Positions 10,603 through 20,199 of a stretch of 29,813 nt of DNA are shown one piece after another. The notes below the pieces were generated by a model. That model did not search any database and was not told the origin of the DNA. It saw only the letters and a list, made by a program, of their open reading frames with translations. How positions within the stretch are numbered: position 1 is the first letter of the stretch; every line of letters starts with the position of its first letter. This DNA comes from a virus (taxonomy: Duplodnaviria > Caudoviricetes). The position numbers and the translations under genes were made by a program. The stretch lies in the IMG/VR virus record IMGVR_UViG_3300047121_000505, positions 1 through 29,813 of that record. One strand, 5' to 3'.

Positions 10603-11706
10603 ATGAACTTACAAGAATTAGAAGATTTTAAACTAACAAACGCAATACAGTTTCATGATGTATTAAATCCTGTACTATTCAGGGATGAACATATGATTCC
10701 TGCTGTGCGTGATCGTTTGTTAGAAATAGCTGATGATTTTATGGAACACTTAGGTGTCAATAATGTTGATGTAAAGGATATTACACTAAGTGGTAGCAAT
10801 GCTTCATATACATATACTCCACATAGCGATATAGATTTACACATTTTAGTTGATATTAAAAAATTAGATCATGATGAAATCTATGCTGAACTATTTCATG
10901 TTAAGAAAATTATATGGAATTTACAGCATGACATTACCATTGGTGGGTATGAAGTAGAATTATATGTACAAGATTCTGCCCAACCTGTTGTTAGTCGTGG
11001 TGAATATAGTGTATTGAATGATCGTTGGATAAAATTTCCTACTAAACGTGTGGCTGATATCAATGAACCTGCTAGTAAATCAAAGTTTGAAAAACTAGTA
11101 CAAGTTGCTGAGCTTGCATTAAAAGCAAGAGATATGGACAAGATTGAAGCAGTACTTGATACCATTCGTAAGTATCGTAAGGCAGGATTAGAATCACAAG
11201 GTGAGTTTTCACCTGAGAATATAGCATTTAAAGCATTGCGTACAAGTGGTTTATTGCATCGTTTACGTGATGCATATAATGAGATACATAGTCAAACAAT
11301 GAGTATGGCAGAAAAAGGACCAAAAATTCTTGACAAACCTACACTATCAATTAGCGATTTAGCTAAAAAGCATGGTGTTAGTCGTGAACATATTATTGGG
11401 CAACTTAAAAAAGGCATAAAAGTAGAATTAGAACATACAAGTATACGTGATGTTGCTACAGAAATTGCATTAGATCATTTAAGTGAAGATCCTAATTATT
11501 ATACCAAATTAGTAAAAGCTAATTTAGAAGAAGGTGCATCAGGGTATATCCCTAGTGAAGCAGAAAAAGATGACCCACGTTTTAAAACAGCATTAACGGT
11601 TGATATTAAACCTGATAGTATTAGACAAAATGCTATAAAATTAGGTTTAGGTAAGATTAAACGTAGTGGTATACCACCCATAGCAAAGCCATCAGGTAAG
11701 TTCTAA
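10603..11706 (+). CDS. Pol-beta-superfamily nucleotidyltransferase fused to a DUF5661-like domain
   Basis: GS...SDIDLH...ELY catalytic pattern; C-terminal VELEHT...IALDHL.EDPNYYTKL segment. Confidence 0.7.
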   Translation: MNLQELEDFKLTNAIQFHDVLNPVLFRDEHMIPAVRDRLLEIADDFMEHLGVNNVDVKDITLSGSNASYTYTPHSDIDLHILVDIKKLDHDEIYAELFHVKKIIWNLQHDITIGGYEVELYVQDSAQPVVSRGEYSVLNDRWIKFPTKRVADINEPASKSKFEKLVQVAELALKARDMDKIEAVLDTIRKYRKAGLESQGEFSPENIAFKALRTSGLLHRLRDAYNEIHSQTMSMAEKGPKILDKPTLSISDLAKKHGVSREHIIGQLKKGIKVELEHTSIRDVATEIALDHLSEDPNYYTKLVKANLEEGASGYIPSEAEKDDPRFKTALTVDIKPDSIRQNAIKLGLGKIKRSGIPPIAKPSGKF

Positions 11707-11722
11707 ATTAATTCATAGCGAA

Positions 11723-11728
11723 TAAATA
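11723..11728 (+). promoter_or_regulatory. Putative late promoter (TAAATA)
   Basis: AATAAATAC intergenic, 22 nt before ATG 11751. Confidence 0.6.
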
Positions 11729-11750
11729 CTAGATATTATGGAATTCCATC

Positions 11751-14477
11751 ATGTCAGATATTCGCAAAACCTTAGATAAACTTAATGAAATGACAGCAGG
11801 TTCAGTTGCTACTGTTGCCACACCATTATTCAAAGAAACAGTAAAACGTGAAAAAACGGATGAGACTGCAGATAGTGGTAAAAAATACATGAATAGTGTA
11901 GAGCGTGGTGCTTCAGAGTGGGGCAATTGGGCAGGTAGCAAAAAGAAAAAGACTGTGGCAGAAGCTACTACTCCAACAACGGATGATGATAAGTTTAAAA
12001 CAATGCTTAAAAAGGTTACGAGTAAGAAAGAAGTAAAAAAACAACAAAAAGCAGATACTAAACAACAAGCAAGCGATGCATTTGCTAGTATGTTTGGTGG
12101 AGGTAATCCTGCGGGTACACTTGGTATTAGGAAAGAAGGTGTGGCGGAAGGCTCGGCGGGAAATTGGTATGTAAGAGTCAGAGGCAAGGTTCTTAAAGAC
12201 AAACAATTTAATGCTATCCCATTTTCGTCAGAAGAAGCAGCAAGAACAAAGGCAATGGAAATTTACCGTAAAAAACGCATTCCGTTAGAGATGATTAAAA
12301 TAACGCAGAGTTGGATGGATGGTCCAGAGACGCAAGGTGTGGCGGAAGGCGCAGAGTTTGGTGCTTACTATAGTGAAAAAGTAGCAAAAGAGATATTTAA
12401 CAAGCGACAAGACATTACATCCGAAGATGAAATATTAAATCAAGCATATCATATTGTTTCTAACGAACAAGGTCAAAAAACTGCTCGTTATATGTTTAAC
12501 TATGATGAAGATTTTCCTAGTGATGTTGTTTCAAATTATTTTTATTTGCAAAAACAAGGTGTGGCGGAAGGCTTAGATGAAAGTTGGAAAATATCAACAC
12601 CTATTGATAAAGAACGTTATACAGACATGTCAGACCAAGGTTTAGAGGGTCCATTCCGTTTAAAATCAGGTAAGATTGTTTATTACGATCCTAAAGAAGG
12701 TAAGTATTATGATCGTGATACCGATATGTATATGGATTATGATGAATATCAATCCCATACTAATGAAGAAGCATTGATGGAACTTGGTTATGAAGGTAAT
12801 ATCGGTGCAATGGAAATGGTTAAGTTCTTTAAAATGGCGGACCCACGTCAAAAAGAAATCCTTAATCAATTAATTAAAGAAAAAGAATTCCAACGTGCAT
12901 GGGCATTAATCCAAGGTGTAACAGGTGATAAACTAGTTGGTAAAGAATTTAGCGAAGGTGAAATTGCTGAACAATTAAGTGAGGATTTACGTGCATGGTT
13001 TGGTAAAGGTGGTGAAGGTGGTGCAGGTGGCGGTGGATGGGATCGTTATAATACTAAAGGTGAGCGTATTGGTAAATGTGGAGAACGTAAAGCAGGTGAA
13101 GGTAAACCAAAATGCTTAAGTAAAGAAAAAGCAGCATCATTACGTTCAAGTGGTGGTAAGAAAGCTATTGCAGCAGCAGTACGCAAAAAACGCCGTGAAG
13201 ATCCAAACCCACAACGTCAAGGTGCAGCAGACATGGTGAGCAACAAGACTAAGAATGAAAGTCTTGAGTATTATGTCAAAGAAGGTATTTGCCCACAATG
13301 TAATGGTGAAATGGTCAGTGAAGCATTATTCACTGAAGGTAAAAAAGATGCATGCTACCATAAGGTAAAAAGTCGTTACAAAATTTGGCCCAGCGCCTAC
13401 GGTTCTGGTGCTTTGGTTAAATGTCGCAAAGCAGGTGCAAAAAATTGGGGTAATAAATCTAAGAACGAAAGTATCAACGAAGGTCGTACAGATGATTTAG
13501 AACGTGCATTAATGCAAGCTAGAAAAATTACTAAAGGAATTTCATACGATACTACCGTTAATGAAATTATGGTAGCCATTGAAGAACTAGTAAAATCTTA
13601 TAACTTAGACATGGATGATTTTAATTATCATAATAGTCGTGTGTATGAAGCCAAGCATGAATTAGAAAGTGCAATTTATGGATTAGATGAAATCTTTGAA
13701 GATGCGCTACGTGATGCACAATATTCTGATGAAGAAAGTATCAATGAAGCTGATCCTGCACGTAGAGGATTTTTAGGTAGTTTAGGTAAAGCTGCAGCAG
13801 CAGGAGCAGCAATGGCAGCAGGTGGTAAAGCATTGGGACAAGAAAAACGATCAGTAAACATTAGCGTAGAGGAAGCTGACAATCAAATAAAAGCACTTCG
13901 TAATCAAGCATATCAAGATTTAGCAAGTATGTTGTGGAGTGTTTGGCCCTACATACTTGATAAAAAGTTTGGTAATCTCACACCTGAAGATGATATACCA
14001 AATGCGGAAGAAATAGGTAAAATTATTAGCAATCGTATAGGTAGAAAACTTGAAGAATATGCAAAGGAATATAGAAAAAAAGTTCACATGATTAAAGTAA
14101 ACGCAGGTATAACTGATCCTAATACTTTATACAAAACATCAGCTATGCTAGAAAGCTTAACTGAAGAAGATTTAAGTGAACAAGACCTCATAGTGATGCC
14201 TGGAAAGATGCGTATGCGTGGTGATGTAGTTAAAGCTAAGCATATGGAACCTGACCATGAAGTATCAATGGCAGTTAATAGTTTATTATCTACCGTAAAA
14301 AGTTCAATGTCACTTGCTAAGATAATTAAAGGTAGGAGTGAAGGACAAGGCTTGCCAGGATGGGTCTCAGACCATATCACACGTGCTGATGAATTAATTA
14401 AAGATGTAGCAGAGTATATGGAAGGTCACGAAGCACAAAAAAATATGCTAGAAGGTAAAAAGAATGTTAAAAGATAA
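11751..14477 (+). CDS. Modular polyprotein, probable internal head protein
   Basis: 908 aa of unrelated short modules separated by [LIV]xE motifs (KLNE, TVAE, 3x GVAE, LFTE, 2x SINE, MLE). Confidence 0.75.
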   Translation: MSDIRKTLDKLNEMTAGSVATVATPLFKETVKREKTDETADSGKKYMNSVERGASEWGNWAGSKKKKTVAEATTPTTDDDKFKTMLKKVTSKKEVKKQQKADTKQQASDAFASMFGGGNPAGTLGIRKEGVAEGSAGNWYVRVRGKVLKDKQFNAIPFSSEEAARTKAMEIYRKKRIPLEMIKITQSWMDGPETQGVAEGAEFGAYYSEKVAKEIFNKRQDITSEDEILNQAYHIVSNEQGQKTARYMFNYDEDFPSDVVSNYFYLQKQGVAEGLDESWKISTPIDKERYTDMSDQGLEGPFRLKSGKIVYYDPKEGKYYDRDTDMYMDYDEYQSHTNEEALMELGYEGNIGAMEMVKFFKMADPRQKEILNQLIKEKEFQRAWALIQGVTGDKLVGKEFSEGEIAEQLSEDLRAWFGKGGEGGAGGGGWDRYNTKGERIGKCGERKAGEGKPKCLSKEKAASLRSSGGKKAIAAAVRKKRREDPNPQRQGAADMVSNKTKNESLEYYVKEGICPQCNGEMVSEALFTEGKKDACYHKVKSRYKIWPSAYGSGALVKCRKAGAKNWGNKSKNESINEGRTDDLERALMQARKITKGISYDTTVNEIMVAIEELVKSYNLDMDDFNYHNSRVYEAKHELESAIYGLDEIFEDALRDAQYSDEESINEADPARRGFLGSLGKAAAAGAAMAAGGKALGQEKRSVNISVEEADNQIKALRNQAYQDLASMLWSVWPYILDKKFGNLTPEDDIPNAEEIGKIISNRIGRKLEEYAKEYRKKVHMIKVNAGITDPNTLYKTSAMLESLTEEDLSEQDLIVMPGKMRMRGDVVKAKHMEPDHEVSMAVNSLLSTVKSSMSLAKIIKGRSEGQGLPGWVSDHITRADELIKDVAEYMEGHEAQKNMLEGKKNVKR
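12136..12572 (+). repeat. Three identical 17-bp direct repeats AAGGTGTGGCGGAAGGC
   Basis: Copies at 12136-12152, 12334-12350, 12556-12572; periods 198 and 222 nt, in frame, encoding GVAEG. Confidence 0.95.
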
Positions 14478-14904
14478 GTTAAAGCAAGTGTTGGGAACAT
14501 CATTTGCTTTTTATATTAAAGCAGCAGGGTTCCATTGGAATATAGAAGGACCTAACTTTCCACAATATCATGCATTTTTAGGTGACTTGTATAATGAAGT
14601 ATATGATAGTATCGATAAATTAGCTGAAATAATTCGTCAGTTAGACTCATATGCACCTGGCTCGATGACAAGGTATCAAGAGTTAAGTATTATTGATGAG
14701 CAACAACAAATCCCACGTGCTGAGTTAATGATGGCAGAATTGTACGAAGATAATCAAAAGATTATTGTATTATTAAAAGAAACGTTTCATCAATGTGAAG
14801 CAGAAGATGAGCAAGGTATTGCTGATTTTATAGCAGGACGTATCGATAGTCACGCAAAACATTCATGGATGCTTCGTAGCATATTGAAAAAAGACCGTGG
14901 ATGA
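14464..14904 (+). CDS. dps: Dps ferritin-like DNA protection protein
   Basis: HWNIEG.NF...H, D.LAE ferroxidase residues, K.SWML. Confidence 0.92.
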   Translation: MLKDKLKQVLGTSFAFYIKAAGFHWNIEGPNFPQYHAFLGDLYNEVYDSIDKLAEIIRQLDSYAPGSMTRYQELSIIDEQQQIPRAELMMAELYEDNQKIIVLLKETFHQCEAEDEQGIADFIAGRIDSHAKHSWMLRSILKKDRG

Positions 14905-17105
14905 AAATCAGTCAGTTATTAGAATACCAAAAAGCTAGAGAGACAAAAGCATTTCGTAGTTGGTTTGGTAATAGTAAAGTGGTTGACAGTAATGGCAATC
15001 CACTTGTTGTATATCGTGGTACACGTAAGCGACCTGCTGCCACAGAATTTAAATTAACACAAGGTCGTGCAGTACCATCATTTACAAATGATCCTGCAGC
15101 AGCTAGTGTATATGCTAGGCAATTAGATACAAGACAATATGGTAGTGGTTCTACTGTAATCGCAGCGTATTTACGTATTGTAAAACCATTAGACCTTACC
15201 CGTTATAATGAAACAATATCATTAATTGATTTTATCAATATGGTGCCTAGCGATTTAAATGTACCTGATGGTGGACGTAAAAAACTAGGTTGGAGAGATG
15301 TGTCCTATATGATATATGATTTAGATGAAATCATATACAAAACAGGCGCAAGATTTTCAATCAATGCTTATGACGATGATGGGTTTAGAATAAAAGGATT
15401 TCGTGACCTTTCAGATCAAATTGACATATGGGGTGAAGCAGACGATATTAGTTCTATTGAGGATGCACTAGACAATACGGTTATAGATACATATACTATT
15501 GCAGATAGTGAAGATATTGTAAGTTACCTACAAGGTATGGGATATGATGGTGTCATTTTAAAAGATGTTTTTGAAGCAGGTGCTAAACATTATGAACCAC
15601 GTGATAGAGAATTAGAACTTGGTGCTGAAGGTACACCAATTATTTTAACTTATCGCCCATTTGAACAGTATCAAATCAAGTCTATATATAATGTAGGTAC
15701 ATTTGGTAAATATGAACCTGACATTACTAAAGAAGATAGTAATGATAGAGAAAATAATTTTAATAAGTGGTTTGGTAATAGTAAGGTGGTTGATGCAAAA
15801 GGCGATCCATTAGTGGTGTATCATGGGACGCTGAGAAACTTTGCAGCGTTTGACAAGTCTGCGCCAAAAGGCAGCAGTGTGCCAAATGCAACTGATTATC
15901 TAGGCATCTTTTTCTCAACGTCAGCCTCGGATGCTGGCGGGTATGCTCAACAAGAAGGTGCCAACATCATTCCCGTTTTCTTATCTATTAAAAATCCGAT
16001 GCCTATATCTGTGGACAAATGGGTGTCAATGTCAAATTCTAGCAAGGGATACGTCCAAGTACGCAATCTTCTTAAAAAGGCTACGGAAAACGGTAATGAT
16101 GGCTTCGTTGTCAAAGGCAGAACTAAAACGTGGTACATAGCCTTACGCCCTGAGCAAATCAAATCCGTTTACAACGATGGTACATTTGACCCAACCAATC
16201 CTAGTATTAACAAAGAGTCAATGAATTTTTTAAAAGAATTAGTAGAAGGTCGTGAAGAAAACTTACGAGCATGGTTTGGTAATAGTAAAGTAGTTGATAC
16301 AAATGGTTTACCAATGATTGTATATCATGGTACTGCTAACGATTTTACAACATTTAAAAATTTATATCGTGATTTTGGTATACATTTTGGTAATCGTGAA
16401 GCGGCGAACGAATTTGCAACGAATAAACGTGCAGTTTCTGTTAGTGGAGCACGTGTAATTCCTGTATATTTAAAGATTACTAAACCTTTTACTATGCCTG
16501 ATATATTTGGTCCTGATGAGGATCATTTACGTCAAGTTATGAACTTTTTCTTAAAGCAAAAGATTATTAATCAAAAAGAATGGAATGAACTTGAAGCAAT
16601 TCGACGAGATCGTGATATGGATTGGAATGATTGTAAAGCAACAATCTATGCTGAACTAGCACGTTCATTGTTTGATGCAGGATATGATGGTATACAATAT
16701 AGAAATACCAATGAAGGTAAACGAACATTGCGACCTGATGAACGTATTAATTTTGTCATCAAAAAAGAAGGATTTAAGTACGTAGCATATTTGCCTGATA
16801 ATATTATGCCTACTGCACCTTTAGGTGATGGAAATACTCCTGAAGAAGCTGAAAAAGAGGCTTATGAATACTTGCAACAGCAAGCATCGTATATTGATAT
16901 GTCTTATATAATATTCAATTCATCCCAAGTTAAGAGTGCGTTTGGTACAGAATATGACCCTAGTGATCCACGTTATACTAAAGAAGACAAGCAAAATCCA
17001 AAATATTTAAGTGGGACAGACAAAGTTACAAAGATTAGTCCTGTTTTAGGCGCAAAACCTAAAAAACAAAAAGAACTAATGAATAAGTTTTTCGGATCAT
17101 CATAA
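14901..17105 (+). CDS. Protein with three tandem ADP-ribosyltransferase-like (ART-PolyVal type) domains
   Basis: Three WFGNSKVVD..G.P..VY[RH]GT starts, each followed by [ST]/hydrophobic strand, YL, G[YN]DG and Q[IV]KS end. Confidence 0.65.
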   Translation: MKISQLLEYQKARETKAFRSWFGNSKVVDSNGNPLVVYRGTRKRPAATEFKLTQGRAVPSFTNDPAAASVYARQLDTRQYGSGSTVIAAYLRIVKPLDLTRYNETISLIDFINMVPSDLNVPDGGRKKLGWRDVSYMIYDLDEIIYKTGARFSINAYDDDGFRIKGFRDLSDQIDIWGEADDISSIEDALDNTVIDTYTIADSEDIVSYLQGMGYDGVILKDVFEAGAKHYEPRDRELELGAEGTPIILTYRPFEQYQIKSIYNVGTFGKYEPDITKEDSNDRENNFNKWFGNSKVVDAKGDPLVVYHGTLRNFAAFDKSAPKGSSVPNATDYLGIFFSTSASDAGGYAQQEGANIIPVFLSIKNPMPISVDKWVSMSNSSKGYVQVRNLLKKATENGNDGFVVKGRTKTWYIALRPEQIKSVYNDGTFDPTNPSINKESMNFLKELVEGREENLRAWFGNSKVVDTNGLPMIVYHGTANDFTTFKNLYRDFGIHFGNREAANEFATNKRAVSVSGARVIPVYLKITKPFTMPDIFGPDEDHLRQVMNFFLKQKIINQKEWNELEAIRRDRDMDWNDCKATIYAELARSLFDAGYDGIQYRNTNEGKRTLRPDERINFVIKKEGFKYVAYLPDNIMPTAPLGDGNTPEEAEKEAYEYLQQQASYIDMSYIIFNSSQVKSAFGTEYDPSDPRYTKEDKQNPKYLSGTDKVTKISPVLGAKPKKQKELMNKFFGSS
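14961..16297 (+). repeat. Three near-identical 26-bp repeats TGGTTTGGTAATAGTAARGTRGTTGA
   Basis: Copies at 14961-14986, 15768-15793, 16272-16297 mark domain starts. Confidence 0.85.
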
Positions 17106-17108
17106 ATA
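17103..17108 (+). promoter_or_regulatory. Putative late promoter (TAAATA)
   Basis: Overlaps the upstream stop codon; followed by AAGGA SD and ATG 17127. Confidence 0.6.
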
Positions 17109-17126
17109 TTATAAAGGAATATTACT

Positions 17127-17246
17127 ATGAGAACTTACAAATTTAATGTAAAGTGTGCAAGTGGCGAAATGAAAGAATTCACTTGTCAAGCTGCTTCTTA
17201 CAATGAAGCACGTGGTTTACTAGCGGATTTTGCCAAGAATAATTAA
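17127..17246 (+). CDS. Small hypothetical protein (39 aa, MRTYKFNVKCASGEMKEFTCQAASYNEARGLLADFAKNN)
   Basis: Not in ORF track; own promoter motif and SD, fills the gap. Confidence 0.7.
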   Translation: MRTYKFNVKCASGEMKEFTCQAASYNEARGLLADFAKNN

Positions 17247-17293
17247 TATAAATTTGCGTTAAATTAAATAATGATTAATTTAACGAGGTTATA

Positions 17294-17992
17294 TTGGTTC
17301 CAAAAATATATCTAGCAACTCCTGCTTATAATAGCCAATGCTGTATTCAATTTACTGATACGGTTATTCAACTACAAAAATTGCTACTAAGTAAAGATTG
17401 GCAATTTCAATATCAATTTATATCAGGTGAAACCATTATATCATTTGCTAGAAATTTACTAGCAACTGATTTTTTAAATACTGATAGTACCCATTTATTA
17501 TTTTTAGATGCAGACATGTCATGTAACCCTCATGACATTGTAAGGATGGTTGAAGAAAATGTAGACATTGTTGGTGGAGTATATCCTTTTAAAATGTTGC
17601 ATTGGGATTGGGTAGAACATGCCGTAAAAAATGGCGTTACTGCTAATGATTTAGCAACACATAGTACTAATTATGTTTTCACACCATTAGAAAACACTTC
17701 ACGGTTTCTTGATAATGAAGATCTTAAAGAAGTAGAATCAGTTGGTACAGGTTACATGTTAATAAAAAGGCGTGTATTTGAAACCATGAGACTACATGTT
17801 AAAACATATATTTCTGAACAATATGGAAATTATGGAAATCAATACTATTCTTTTTTTAATATTTTAGTTAAAAACAATATATCATATGGTGAAGACAACT
17901 TATTTTGTCATGATTGGCGTAATTTAGGCGGTAAAATTTTTGTTGCTCCATATGCAAAAGCTAAACACTATGGTATGCATAGTTTTGGATAA
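17294..17992 (+). CDS. GT-A-fold glycosyltransferase-like protein (paralog of 8950..9933)
   Basis: LATPAY, ETIISFARN, FLDAD, GTGY, GED; TTG start with GAGG SD. Confidence 0.75.
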   Translation: MVPKIYLATPAYNSQCCIQFTDTVIQLQKLLLSKDWQFQYQFISGETIISFARNLLATDFLNTDSTHLLFLDADMSCNPHDIVRMVEENVDIVGGVYPFKMLHWDWVEHAVKNGVTANDLATHSTNYVFTPLENTSRFLDNEDLKEVESVGTGYMLIKRRVFETMRLHVKTYISEQYGNYGNQYYSFFNILVKNNISYGEDNLFCHDWRNLGGKIFVAPYAKAKHYGMHSFG

Positions 17993-17995
17993 ATA
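17990..17995 (+). promoter_or_regulatory. Putative late promoter (TAAATA)
   Basis: Overlaps upstream stop; AAGGA SD and ATG 18016 follow. Confidence 0.6.
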
Positions 17996-18015
17996 CTGAA
18001 TAAAGGATTTGTGTT

Positions 18016-19260
18016 ATGAAAATTAGTGAATTATTATTGGAAGAAGCGTCTAAGGAAGATTTACCTGGAGCGGCACCTGGAGTAGAGGTTATGTCCTTAC
18101 AACAATTTGTTCAAGATCAAGAAGAACTAGATGAAGCAGAAAAGTTTTTAGGGGCACCACATCGTGATTATCCTGAAGATGAATTAACTGATTATCTACG
18201 TAGAAAACTTAGTCCTGAATTACAAAAAAAGTATCGTAGACCAAGTAAGAAACAACTTGGTAAAATGTCAGGTGAAGAGTATGAAGTTTATAAGCGTTTT
18301 AAACAAGACAAATTAATACGTCCTTATATTCATAGTGGCACTGTACCTATCGTTGATGGTAATAATCAATTATATGATTTACCAAAGTTAATGGCATCTG
18401 TTATGCAACGTCCAAAGAAATTACTTAAACAAAATGAAAAGATGCAACATAGCGATGGTAGCAGCAGTATATTTTTTAATATTGGATTACCTGCTTTAGT
18501 TGGTTTGGCAGTTGATGAAGATAGACAAAAATTTGTAGTAGTCAACACCTGCCCAGGCGCAGGTAAATGCGTACAAGTATGTTATGCCATGAAAGGTGGG
18601 TATGTACAATATGCTCCACCATCTGAAGCAGGATCTAGATCATTAAACTTTTTATTAAATGATCCTGATGGATGGAAAGCAATGCTTGAGAGCGAAATTG
18701 AATCCGCTAGAGATAGATTTCAGAAAAAAGGTACTCAAGTTATTATTCGTTGGCATGATGCAGGTGATTTCTTTAGTCCTGAATATTTAAACTTGGCTTA
18801 TGATGTTGCTAGAAAGTTTCCTGACGTACAATTTTACGCCTATACTAAAATGGGCGATGTAGCAACAAGTCAGCGTCCACAAAACTTTAGAATTAATTTC
18901 TCTATGGGTGCAAAATCAGGAGAATATAAGAAAGTTGAATTGTATAAAAAACAAACAGGTCAAGAAGTCAAACGTAGTGAAATTGTAGATCGTGATATGT
19001 TTACTGATTTAATGGGACGTGACGCAAACAATCGATTACGTTGGAAAAATGCTGAAGCATGGGAAACATTCAAACAACGTGCAGCACAAAAGTATGGCAT
19101 TAAACCACAATCTATTATTACTTACGATCAAATGATGTCCTTTAAGGATGGTACGAAATCTAATGGTCAACCATATTGGAACGTAGTCGTTGCCCCAGGC
19201 GATGGCGACGATAGTGCTAACCGTAATGACGTTATTATAACTTTATTGCTTGAACACTAA
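18016..19260 (+). CDS. GP88-family protein (Cys cluster, radical-SAM-like)
   Basis: TCPGAGKCVQVCYA, IRWHDAGDF, FYAYTK motifs. Confidence 0.7.
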   Translation: MKISELLLEEASKEDLPGAAPGVEVMSLQQFVQDQEELDEAEKFLGAPHRDYPEDELTDYLRRKLSPELQKKYRRPSKKQLGKMSGEEYEVYKRFKQDKLIRPYIHSGTVPIVDGNNQLYDLPKLMASVMQRPKKLLKQNEKMQHSDGSSSIFFNIGLPALVGLAVDEDRQKFVVVNTCPGAGKCVQVCYAMKGGYVQYAPPSEAGSRSLNFLLNDPDGWKAMLESEIESARDRFQKKGTQVIIRWHDAGDFFSPEYLNLAYDVARKFPDVQFYAYTKMGDVATSQRPQNFRINFSMGAKSGEYKKVELYKKQTGQEVKRSEIVDRDMFTDLMGRDANNRLRWKNAEAWETFKQRAAQKYGIKPQSIITYDQMMSFKDGTKSNGQPYWNVVVAPGDGDDSANRNDVIITLLLEH

Positions 19261-19678
19261 TATGCAACATTGGATGACATATGTTAAACATAGCTACGAG
19301 GTAATTCTTGCAGCAGAAGCAGCAGCATGTGTCAACCTTGATCCTGAAATAGAAGCATTTACTGTGCATATGTTTGCTAGACATATGGAAAACCCACATT
19401 TAAACAAAGAACCAATCGCAATAAAATTGATGGAAGCTATGAACGCAGAAGGTGAGGTTAAAAAGACCAACTTGACAAGACTAGCGGAAGAATGTATACT
19501 CATCGATGGATTGAAACTTAACCAAAAACGTTGGCCTAGTTCATCTTATTATATTGATATGGGTCAGTTAGCATTGGGTTATCGTGCTTATAGTGAACGT
19601 CCACCTGAAATGTTTTATGATCGTGTTGCACGTGAATTTACAACAATCACCAAGGTTATAGGGAATTGTAGAGTATGA
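19250..19678 (+). CDS. Hypothetical protein (start may be ATG 19262)
   Basis: 142-aa ORF, ATGA overlap with next gene. Confidence 0.7.
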   Translation: MNTNMQHWMTYVKHSYEVILAAEAAACVNLDPEIEAFTVHMFARHMENPHLNKEPIAIKLMEAMNAEGEVKKTNLTRLAEECILIDGLKLNQKRWPSSSYYIDMGQLALGYRAYSERPPEMFYDRVAREFTTITKVIGNCRV

Positions 19679-20199
19679 AAATTTTTGAAGTTACCAAACC
19701 TAAACCATTTGTGTTTGTTGATATGGATGGAGTATTAGCAGATTTTGATCAAGCTATTTTAAACTATGATGGTACAGACATAGAAAGTAGGGTAGATAGT
19801 CTGCGTAGCTTAGGACCACGTGGGGTAAAAGAATTTTTCGCTAATATGCCACCATTACCTGATGGTATGCGTTTAATTAAATGGTTAAATGATCACAATG
19901 TTGATTGGCGTATATTAAGCGCACCTTTACGTAGTAGTGGGGTTGATCCTAAAGACAGTCGTAAAGCAAGTGAAATTGGTAAGAAGGATTGGTTAGCCGC
20001 AAATTTAGGATGGGAAATTGCTAGGAAGGCAATATTTGAGCCTAACAAATGGAAGTGGGCAAATTATGGACACCAACGTGCTGTATTAATTGACGATACA
20101 CCCAAAAAAATTGATGCTTTTAAACAAGCAGGTGGTATTGGTTTGTTATATACTGATTTAAATTCAGTCATGCCACAGTTAAAACAGATATTCCTATAG
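19675..20199 (+). CDS. HAD 5'(3')-deoxyribonucleotidase-like protein
   Basis: VDMDGVLADF, ILSAP, K..W, LIDD, GG.G. Confidence 0.85.
   Translation: MKIFEVTKPKPFVFVDMDGVLADFDQAILNYDGTDIESRVDSLRSLGPRGVKEFFANMPPLPDGMRLIKWLNDHNVDWRILSAPLRSSGVDPKDSRKASEIGKKDWLAANLGWEIARKAIFEPNKWKWANYGHQRAVLIDDTPKKIDAFKQAGGIGLLYTDLNSVMPQLKQIFL

Follow-up and report, generated by a model that had tools for sequence, protein, structure and literature searches.

The Polyprotein Gene and Its Repeated Joint

The DNA examined here is a 29.8-kb virus record from IMG/VR (IMGVR_UViG_3300047121_000505; all 29,813 nt, hereafter the window), and our subject is a gene within it for a 908-amino-acid (aa) modular polyprotein, in which modules are bounded by identical in-frame copies of a short repeat, the joint (Table 1). 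The window also encodes a family B polymerase, PhoH and a ferritin-like protein, and three of its genes match “virion structural protein” families. By polymerase, the closest isolates are the jumbo phages Phosso, Atu_ph07, XaC1 and CBB (identity below 49%); relatives that bear the repeat reach 260–374 kb, and the sequencing runs containing the stretch are mostly labeled as lake or freshwater metagenomes. The polyprotein gene belongs to an uncultured T4-type jumbo phage.

The 17-mer AAGGTGTGGCGGAAGGC is present three times without mismatch, and no further copy was found in the window within three mismatches; none of 100 shuffled sequences reached three copies (mean 0.01). All three copies lie in the frame of the polyprotein gene, where they encode GVAEG at residues 130, 196, and 270, and their spacings of 198 and 222 nt correspond to 66 and 74 codons. 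These copies and the in-frame modules between them had been described in an initial annotation of the sequence, and we could confirm both, along with its claim that the modules are unrelated rather than diverged tandem duplicates, since no alignment between the two was found. The joint also uses codons that are uncommon here, as had been claimed, with GTG, GCG, and GGC making up 10%, 9%, and 10% of the codons for their own residues. A decayed copy had been proposed at about 11954; it is real and in frame (TVAEA), but weak, matching at 11/17 bases. In L272 and L286, homologues of the module behind this worn copy are preceded by DVAE, AVAE, or GVAE.

The suggestion that the first module between copies (cassette 1) looks foreign stands only in part: its CG excess is real (44 CG/kb at 41% G+C, compared with 23/kb and 35% in the window, and with 30% G+C in cassette 2), but at about 8 versus 4 on 181 nt the signal is weak when taken alone. 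The description of CCAG as an avoidable word was borne out, with 16 sites seen in the window versus 55 expected. CCAG/CTGG is strongly avoided unless a G follows, the CCAG at 12324 being one of four sites without one (both strands counted), and CCGG does not occur at all; these words are possibly host restriction sites. No Pfam family was found for the 908-aa protein, the later modules of which are common to cyanophage proteins, some annotated as “structural protein” (annotation only). Cassettes 1 and 2 gave no match of known function in Pfam, PHROGs, PDB sequences, or Atlas.

Modules Are Gained, Lost, and Replaced at the Joint

Comparison of orthologues of this slot, which have flanks 95–98% identical, showed module gain, loss, replacement, and re-ordering with breakpoints at the joint and with the frame kept, as the initial annotation had anticipated. 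Five alleles were found: cassettes 1 and 2, as in the window; cassette 1 alone; another module; cassette 1 followed by that module; and a fourth module. In L256 and L257, the upstream flank matches the window at 372/385 and 379/385 nt, respectively, and the downstream flank common to all three matches at 208/218 nt. Between these flanks, L256 has cassette 1 (150/180 nt) and no cassette 2. L257 carries an unrelated module there, flanked by a variant of copy 1 that differs at one base and by a worn copy. In P0031, cassette 1 is followed by the module of L257. The fourth module comes from a contig of run X14 (depth 284), which departs from the window after 12153 and rejoins it at 12579 with 212 other letters between, so that it is 213 nt shorter overall and still in frame; X14 also has a contig identical to the window, at a depth of 6.8. 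The first 30 letters of the X14 module were compared with a module behind an unrelated neighbor in L028, and 28 of them match; the repeat spacing of 219 in L028 agrees exactly with the X14 module length. Each of the four non-window alleles leaves the window's sequence at a repeat, and their common point of return is the GAA preceding WKIST.

Both cassettes are also found in other genes and other orders. Cassette 1 occurs in 40 proteins (the window's counted) with 32 upstream and 35 downstream neighbor classes, and has GVAE on its 5′ side in 30 and on its 3′ side in 33 of them. For cassette 2, which is doubled in P0001, 27 full occurrences have 22 upstream and 22 downstream neighbor classes. 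Cassette 1 and a GKNVVKS module are found in both orders (P0038 vs. P0036/P0059). Among 237 junctions, we counted more than 200 upstream and downstream module classes. Once identical junctions had been collapsed and 10 of the 237 dropped for short frames, the 227 distinct ones gave 25,651 pairs, of which 67 share the upstream module alone, 69 the downstream module alone and one both, with none in the grey zone. In an ungapped comparison, identity drops to the background level a few bases away from the repeat. Over all modules, 187 of 240 contexts are two-sided (query contexts included), with the joint on the 5′ side only in 21 and on the 3′ side only in 14.

The Joint Is Conserved as DNA

The proposed search for the 17-mer in related phages found it present, and in 162 of the 168 matches listed the GVAEG frame is open on both sides. 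Our IMG/VR scan yielded at least 130 loci, and we estimate about 1100 stretches. Neighboring copies are spaced by multiples of three in 38/38 cases, at distances of 126–1110 nt (median 216, n = 177), and five large records hold 2–7 copies each, all on a single strand and for the most part grouped within polyprotein genes. The carriers G001, G002, G005, and G007 have 39–47% G+C and polymerases 56–59% identical to that of the window. In five genomes of the cultured jumbo phages nearest by polymerase, there were no exact copies of the 13-mer and one site with one mismatch, and G013, a complete relative, has no copy of the repeat; its genes are shorter and contain the same types of module. A host-encoded site was considered and rejected: in 596 Gb of prokaryote genomes, an 18-mer was found in 56 stretches, 55 of them single and unrelated-looking, the sole exception being a triple copy in a polyprotein frame on the metagenome-assembled genome contig L569, which is probably a phage contig inside a bacterial bin. 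In L509 (701–904), both joints flanking a cassette 2 homologue have the same two synonymous variants (GTA GCA).

When the third bases of the Val and Ala codons were left free, 106/148 matches read GTG GCG, versus about 1.5% predicted from same-frame codon use, and the remaining 42 include chance matches in unrelated contigs. We also assembled a set independent of the motif, consisting of 62 loci retrieved via the neighboring gene, which contained 45 GVAE sites. At these sites, the codons were GGT in 42/45, GTG in 38/45, GCG in 41/45, and GAA in 42/45, and GGC encoded 30/32 of the glycines after GVAE, against codon backgrounds of 0.49, 0.12, 0.10, 0.76, and 0.14, respectively. The codons of the joint are therefore not freely varying, in agreement with the initial annotation, which had placed the conservation at the DNA level. 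In a set of 73 sites selected without the full motif, the two A's ahead of the core are each 93% conserved despite residue change (Q/E/K; CAA 45, GAA 17, AAA 3, CAG 1), and the G after the Glu codon is likewise 93% conserved despite residue change (G/A/E/D/V), giving AAGGTGTGGCGGAAG(GC) as the conserved joint word. Over 12 nt, the core is similar to the 5′ ends of tRNA-Leu. Other Glu linkers in the same genes (ESVE, GLNE, SLNE, SVEE, DVEE, SEEE) use free codons, with the top string at 19–27%. Because the edge bases hold while the residues vary, and because the codons of other linkers are free, we concluded that the joint word is conserved as DNA. Hybrid spellings (DVAE, SVAE, GMAE) retain part of this word, and adjacent copies share more variant bases than shuffled pairs do (33 vs. 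18.3, p = 0.0002), which fits local homogenization.

How the Modules May Move

The joint is likely a short recombination hotspot. The explanation toward which we lean, with some reserve, is short-homology exchange by general recombination, in which use renews the commonest spelling. Crossing over between two copies would excise, insert, or swap a module with the frame always kept, as with the PeSL mini-circles considered below, and the phage's own UvsX-type general machinery would perform the exchange. A module lying between joints of the commonest spelling would fit the largest number of slots and would thereby renew that spelling, and this would account for the constancy of rare codons across genomes of 35–47% G+C. 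UvsX/RecA was detected in 5/5 genomes, G013 among them, and a Pfam scan of 278 open reading frames (ORFs) of G002 returned RecA, an SMC-like ATPase with phosphoesterase, a superfamily-2 helicase, and a SegE endonuclease.

Several observations weigh against general recombination. A word of 15–17 bp is short for RecA-type exchange, and UvsX is also encoded by G013, which lacks the repeat. The excised circles and deletion junctions for which the initial annotation had suggested searching were not seen, as no trustworthy repeat-to-repeat deletion or circle joint was present in the contigs of seven runs; these contigs drop rare forms, and so cannot show rare joints of either kind. Two candidate joints in them, with sides of 20–21 nt, were rejected as probably being repeats of other phages. 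L256 additionally lacks 12 nt, and so is not an exact repeat-to-repeat deletion of cassette 2, and the two alleles in X14 may belong to different strains, with 5/554 and 28/522 flank bases of the major form differing from the window. Cassette 2 has the joint on its 5′ side in 6/27 and on its 3′ side in 24/27 occurrences, and GGC is rarer after the last copy in a gene (20/39 vs. 27/34, p = 0.015, unselected set), a deficit that is not significant over all 341 sites; these features hint at polarity. The variants shared between adjacent copies could alternatively reflect a genome-wide mutation bias, and the 84–94% conservation at every wobble base is equally expected of a binding site.

A dedicated recombinase or nicking enzyme of phage or host origin, so far unrecognized, might instead target the repeat and move the module together with its joint, crossing near GAA-G; we regard this, the main alternative, as possible but doubtful. 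Such an enzyme would fit the constancy of all wobble bases and of the two edges whatever the residue, the use of one spelling across genomes with polymerases 56–59% identical to the window's, the sharp fall of identity at the repeat edges, the one-sidedness of cassette 2, and the rejoining of four alleles at one GAA. Against it, no known family was found in the records searched, most of which are fragments, and this limits the negatives: tyrosine recombinases (PF00589) were detected in 0/5 and 0/11 records, including G005 (97%) and G007 (100%), reverse transcriptases in none of the same 16, and resolvase, Y1, Cas1, and IS110 enzymes in 0/5 each. No site-specific recombinase was found by Pfam among the 278 ORFs of G002, itself incomplete, and none among the window proteins scanned (two scans, 18 proteins each), in line with the earlier remark that none was visible. 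A gene co-occurring with the repeat was also sought, as the initial annotation had suggested; 111 ORFs are common to G007 and G005 and absent from G013, and the 71 that we scanned included no recombinase candidate, the remainder being short or recognizable by eye. This gene-tracking comparison draws on one complete repeat-negative relative, and many of the shared ORFs have no family. The repeat has no inverted symmetry and no match in Rfam, and an attC-like hairpin is absent, as three 51-nt stretches fold like shuffled sequences (z = −0.98, 0.18, 0.71). With no integrase found, no hairpin, and no general one-sided polarity, the label “integron-like” that had been given to this system is not supported. 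A broader form of the proposal, which we offer tentatively, is that freshwater jumbo phages have a dedicated domain-cassette system, in which the 15–17-bp word would be at once the target of an unrecognized enzyme and the code for a protease site, making hundreds of injected mini-proteins, likely anti-defense in function, tradable in frame between phages at 56–59% polymerase identity.

It is improbable that an additional role holds the spelling constant, be it as an RNA or DNA protein-binding site, a two-tier G-quadruplex, or a translational signal, with the swapping as a by-product of many identical copies. The word does have four GG runs, two of them created by fixed wobble bases, and all copies are on the coding strand, but the wobble bases outside the GG runs are equally conserved (93–94%), with the third base of the Val codon least so (38/45), and the fourth GG is often lost (GVAEA/E/D). 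There is also no Rfam match and no stable fold, and copy number ranges from 0 to 7 per record, with none in the complete relative. A G-quadruplex trigger like that at pilE was considered separately and is disfavored by the equally fixed non-G wobble bases and by the low rank of the Val position.

Nor do we give much credence to the repeat being a protease linker alone, spelled alike through recent common descent, with modules changing there because other fusions are not tolerated. Modules are indeed lost at other Glu linkers too, as in L257, where the module behind the ESINEA linker is missing, and the module types are alike in G013, which lacks the repeat. This explanation is largely refuted by the fixed codons of the joint and the free codons of the other linkers; the divergence of the modules but not of the repeat (150/180 nt for cassette 1 in L256, and homologues of cassette 2 down to 42–50% aa identity) also speaks against it. 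Finally, that the mosaic genes are assembly chimeras joined via the repeat can hardly be credited: all the data are metagenomic assemblies and several contigs end near the repeat, but the run assemblies used 31-letter words, longer than the 17 nt of the repeat. The window's stretch is found uninterrupted on an X6 contig of 5412 nt, which may be its source, and again on an X14 contig of 485 nt that comes from a different study. Many junctions have non-identical copies, and P0037 is on four contigs.

The Joint as a Probable Protease Site

Judging from sequence, the joint probably doubles as a cut site for a gp21-type prohead protease. T4 gp21 cuts after L/I-x-E, removing a 10-residue targeting leader (PMC9026906), and the SPN3US protease is described as cutting after A-x-E (PMC10052503); V-A-E is a conservative variant of L/I-x-E. 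A gene for an S77/gp21-type protease is present in the repeat-bearing G001, G004, G005, and G007, and the capsid protein (MTQALLE or MSEQLLE), protease, and scaffold of the relatives start with L/I-x-E sites. By motif alone, [ILVF]-x-E occurs within the first 13 residues of 37/55 GVAE proteins versus 228/1559 other ORFs. GVAE also replaces linkers such as SINE at homologous junctions. The N-terminal leader would carry the polyprotein into the prohead, and cutting after V-A-E would release each module irrespective of its neighbors, which would make new orders harmless; the freed modules would then be likely injected cargo, like the T4 internal proteins. Speaking against cleavage, packaging, and injection of this kind, the window has no head genes, the protease was not found in G002 (which lacks the whole head block), G003, or G006, and V at P3 departs from the T4 gp21 rule as given in the source cited (PMC9026906).

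The T4 internal proteins Ip1–3 are described as each blocking a different restriction system (PMC12373910), and by analogy the cassettes may have anti-defense activity. Many small genes with leaders of the form MRAxEF(I/V)xE or MKIx(E/Q)LLE are found at 10603–20199 in the window and in G001, G002, G005, G007, and G013; these likely make up a wider head-cargo set. G002 is rated 99% complete, yet has no portal, protease, scaffold, or capsid genes.

Features of the Polyprotein Gene and Its Neighbors

Table 1. Features of the modular polyprotein gene in the window.
Feature	Position	Strand	Basis or remark
908-aa modular polyprotein gene	11751–14477	+	no Pfam family; later modules in cyanophage proteins
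N-terminal leader MSDIRKTLDKLNE, ending L-x-E; likely capsid-targeting-type propeptide	11751–11789	+	sequence; leader enrichment
Worn joint copy, TVAEA, start of module A	11950–11966	+	11/17 bases
Module A (ATTPTT...GIRKE)	11964–12135	+	precedes a different cassette in L018, L286
Joint copy 1; 5′ breakpoint of all five slot alleles	12136–12152	+	allele comparison
Cassette 1, 60 aa, basic	12153–12333	+	homologues in 39 other proteins, neighbors mostly different
Joint copy 2; L256 and P0031 diverge from the window here	12334–12350	+	allele comparison
Cassette 2, 68 aa, acidic	12351–12555	+	homologues: 26 other long proteins, two stand-alone 72-aa proteins
Joint copy 3	12556–12572	+	exact 17-mer match
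Second Glu linker LDE-S; its GAA is the rejoining point of L256, L257, P0031 and the X14 allele	12573–12584	+	
Other Glu linker ESINEG, not the repeat	13467–13484	+	homologous junctions elsewhere read NE-GVAEG
Other Glu linker ESINEA	13734–13751	+	module behind linker absent from L257

The two ESINE linkers match each other at 15/16 bases. The upstream nucleotidyltransferase-like gene (10603–11706) is also modular, its outer domains being constant and its middle modules different across L256–L278; its product is 367 aa long in the window and as much as 1723 aa long in L262, where it contains several GVAEG joints. The neighboring gene at 14901–17105 encodes three ART-PolyVal domains in one chain behind the leader MKISQLLE, and its middle domain is replaced in L257. 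A second repeat family is present in G007, at 181–184 kb, 202–203 kb, and 237–238 kb (L467–L469), where at least six small ORFs (MNERIK...EKFAELI...) have identical in-frame DNA words around variable middles.

Relation to Known Systems and Implications

Integrons consist of the integrase IntI and the sites attI and attC, and collect small, mutually unrelated coding units with a conserved site at their borders. The genes described here share with them arrays of unrelated small coding units that vary in order and content, but we found no tyrosine integrase, hairpin attC, or general polarity, and the units are in-frame domains rather than genes.

The PeSL cassettes of T4-type phages offer a closer comparison for the exchange. 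Short conserved repeats flank unrelated ORFans there as well (PMC2839356; PMC4122927), gain, loss, and exchange map to the repeats, and no dedicated enzyme is named in the text consulted. Crossover between two copies yields mini-circles, shown for PeSLs by inverse PCR (PMC2839356; PMC4122927), and would do so here. PeSLs are, however, intergenic promoter-terminator (stem-loop) elements that move whole genes, whereas the present joint is a 15–17-bp, intra-frame, peptide-coding word without a hairpin that moves domains within polyproteins.

For the processing, the nearest parallels are T4 IPI–III and Alt, which are small variable proteins with a short leader ending in hydrophobic-x-Glu (PMC9026906; PMC9958956; PMC5694885; PMC3012670; PMC12373910). 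A gp21-type protease is found in the relatives, and content varies between close phages, as it does at the variable T4 internal-protein loci (Repoila, 1994, as reported in citing papers). In T4, there is one gene and one leader per internal protein, and cleavage follows L/I-x-E, whereas here a 908-aa chain has one shared leader and putative V-A-E sites. In SPN3US and phiKZ, ejection proteins are cut after A-x-E or similar Glu motifs at several sites per protein (PMC10052503; PMC5694885); as far as these accounts extend, the cuts remove propeptides and no DNA-conserved joint is described, and both the phage group and the protease family are different. Phage polyvalent proteins are also large and multidomain, of variable make-up, and proposed to be injected (PMC7824862). 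In the part of that account available, no repeat-defined joints are described; the cassettes here are 40–160 aa long and of no known family.

We conclude that this system combines PeSL-like shuffling with probable processing of the T4 internal-protein type and is a member of neither group. Our search, the scope of which was literature outside subscription journals and supplements, found no published description of a comparable joint that is in frame and conserved as DNA, and the literature listings for “GVAEG” gave unrelated matches only.

The joint is a natural device for shuffling domains, with a single short word that would both set the exchange point and separate the fused products; we document the shuffling in a large number of phage contigs. 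It makes testable the homology length and the enzymes needed for T4-type modular exchange, as well as whether exchange alone can hold a sequence fixed. It also shows where the members of a large collection of small proteins begin and end, and if the modules are head cargo like the T4 internal proteins, they would provide a ready list of anti-defense candidates.

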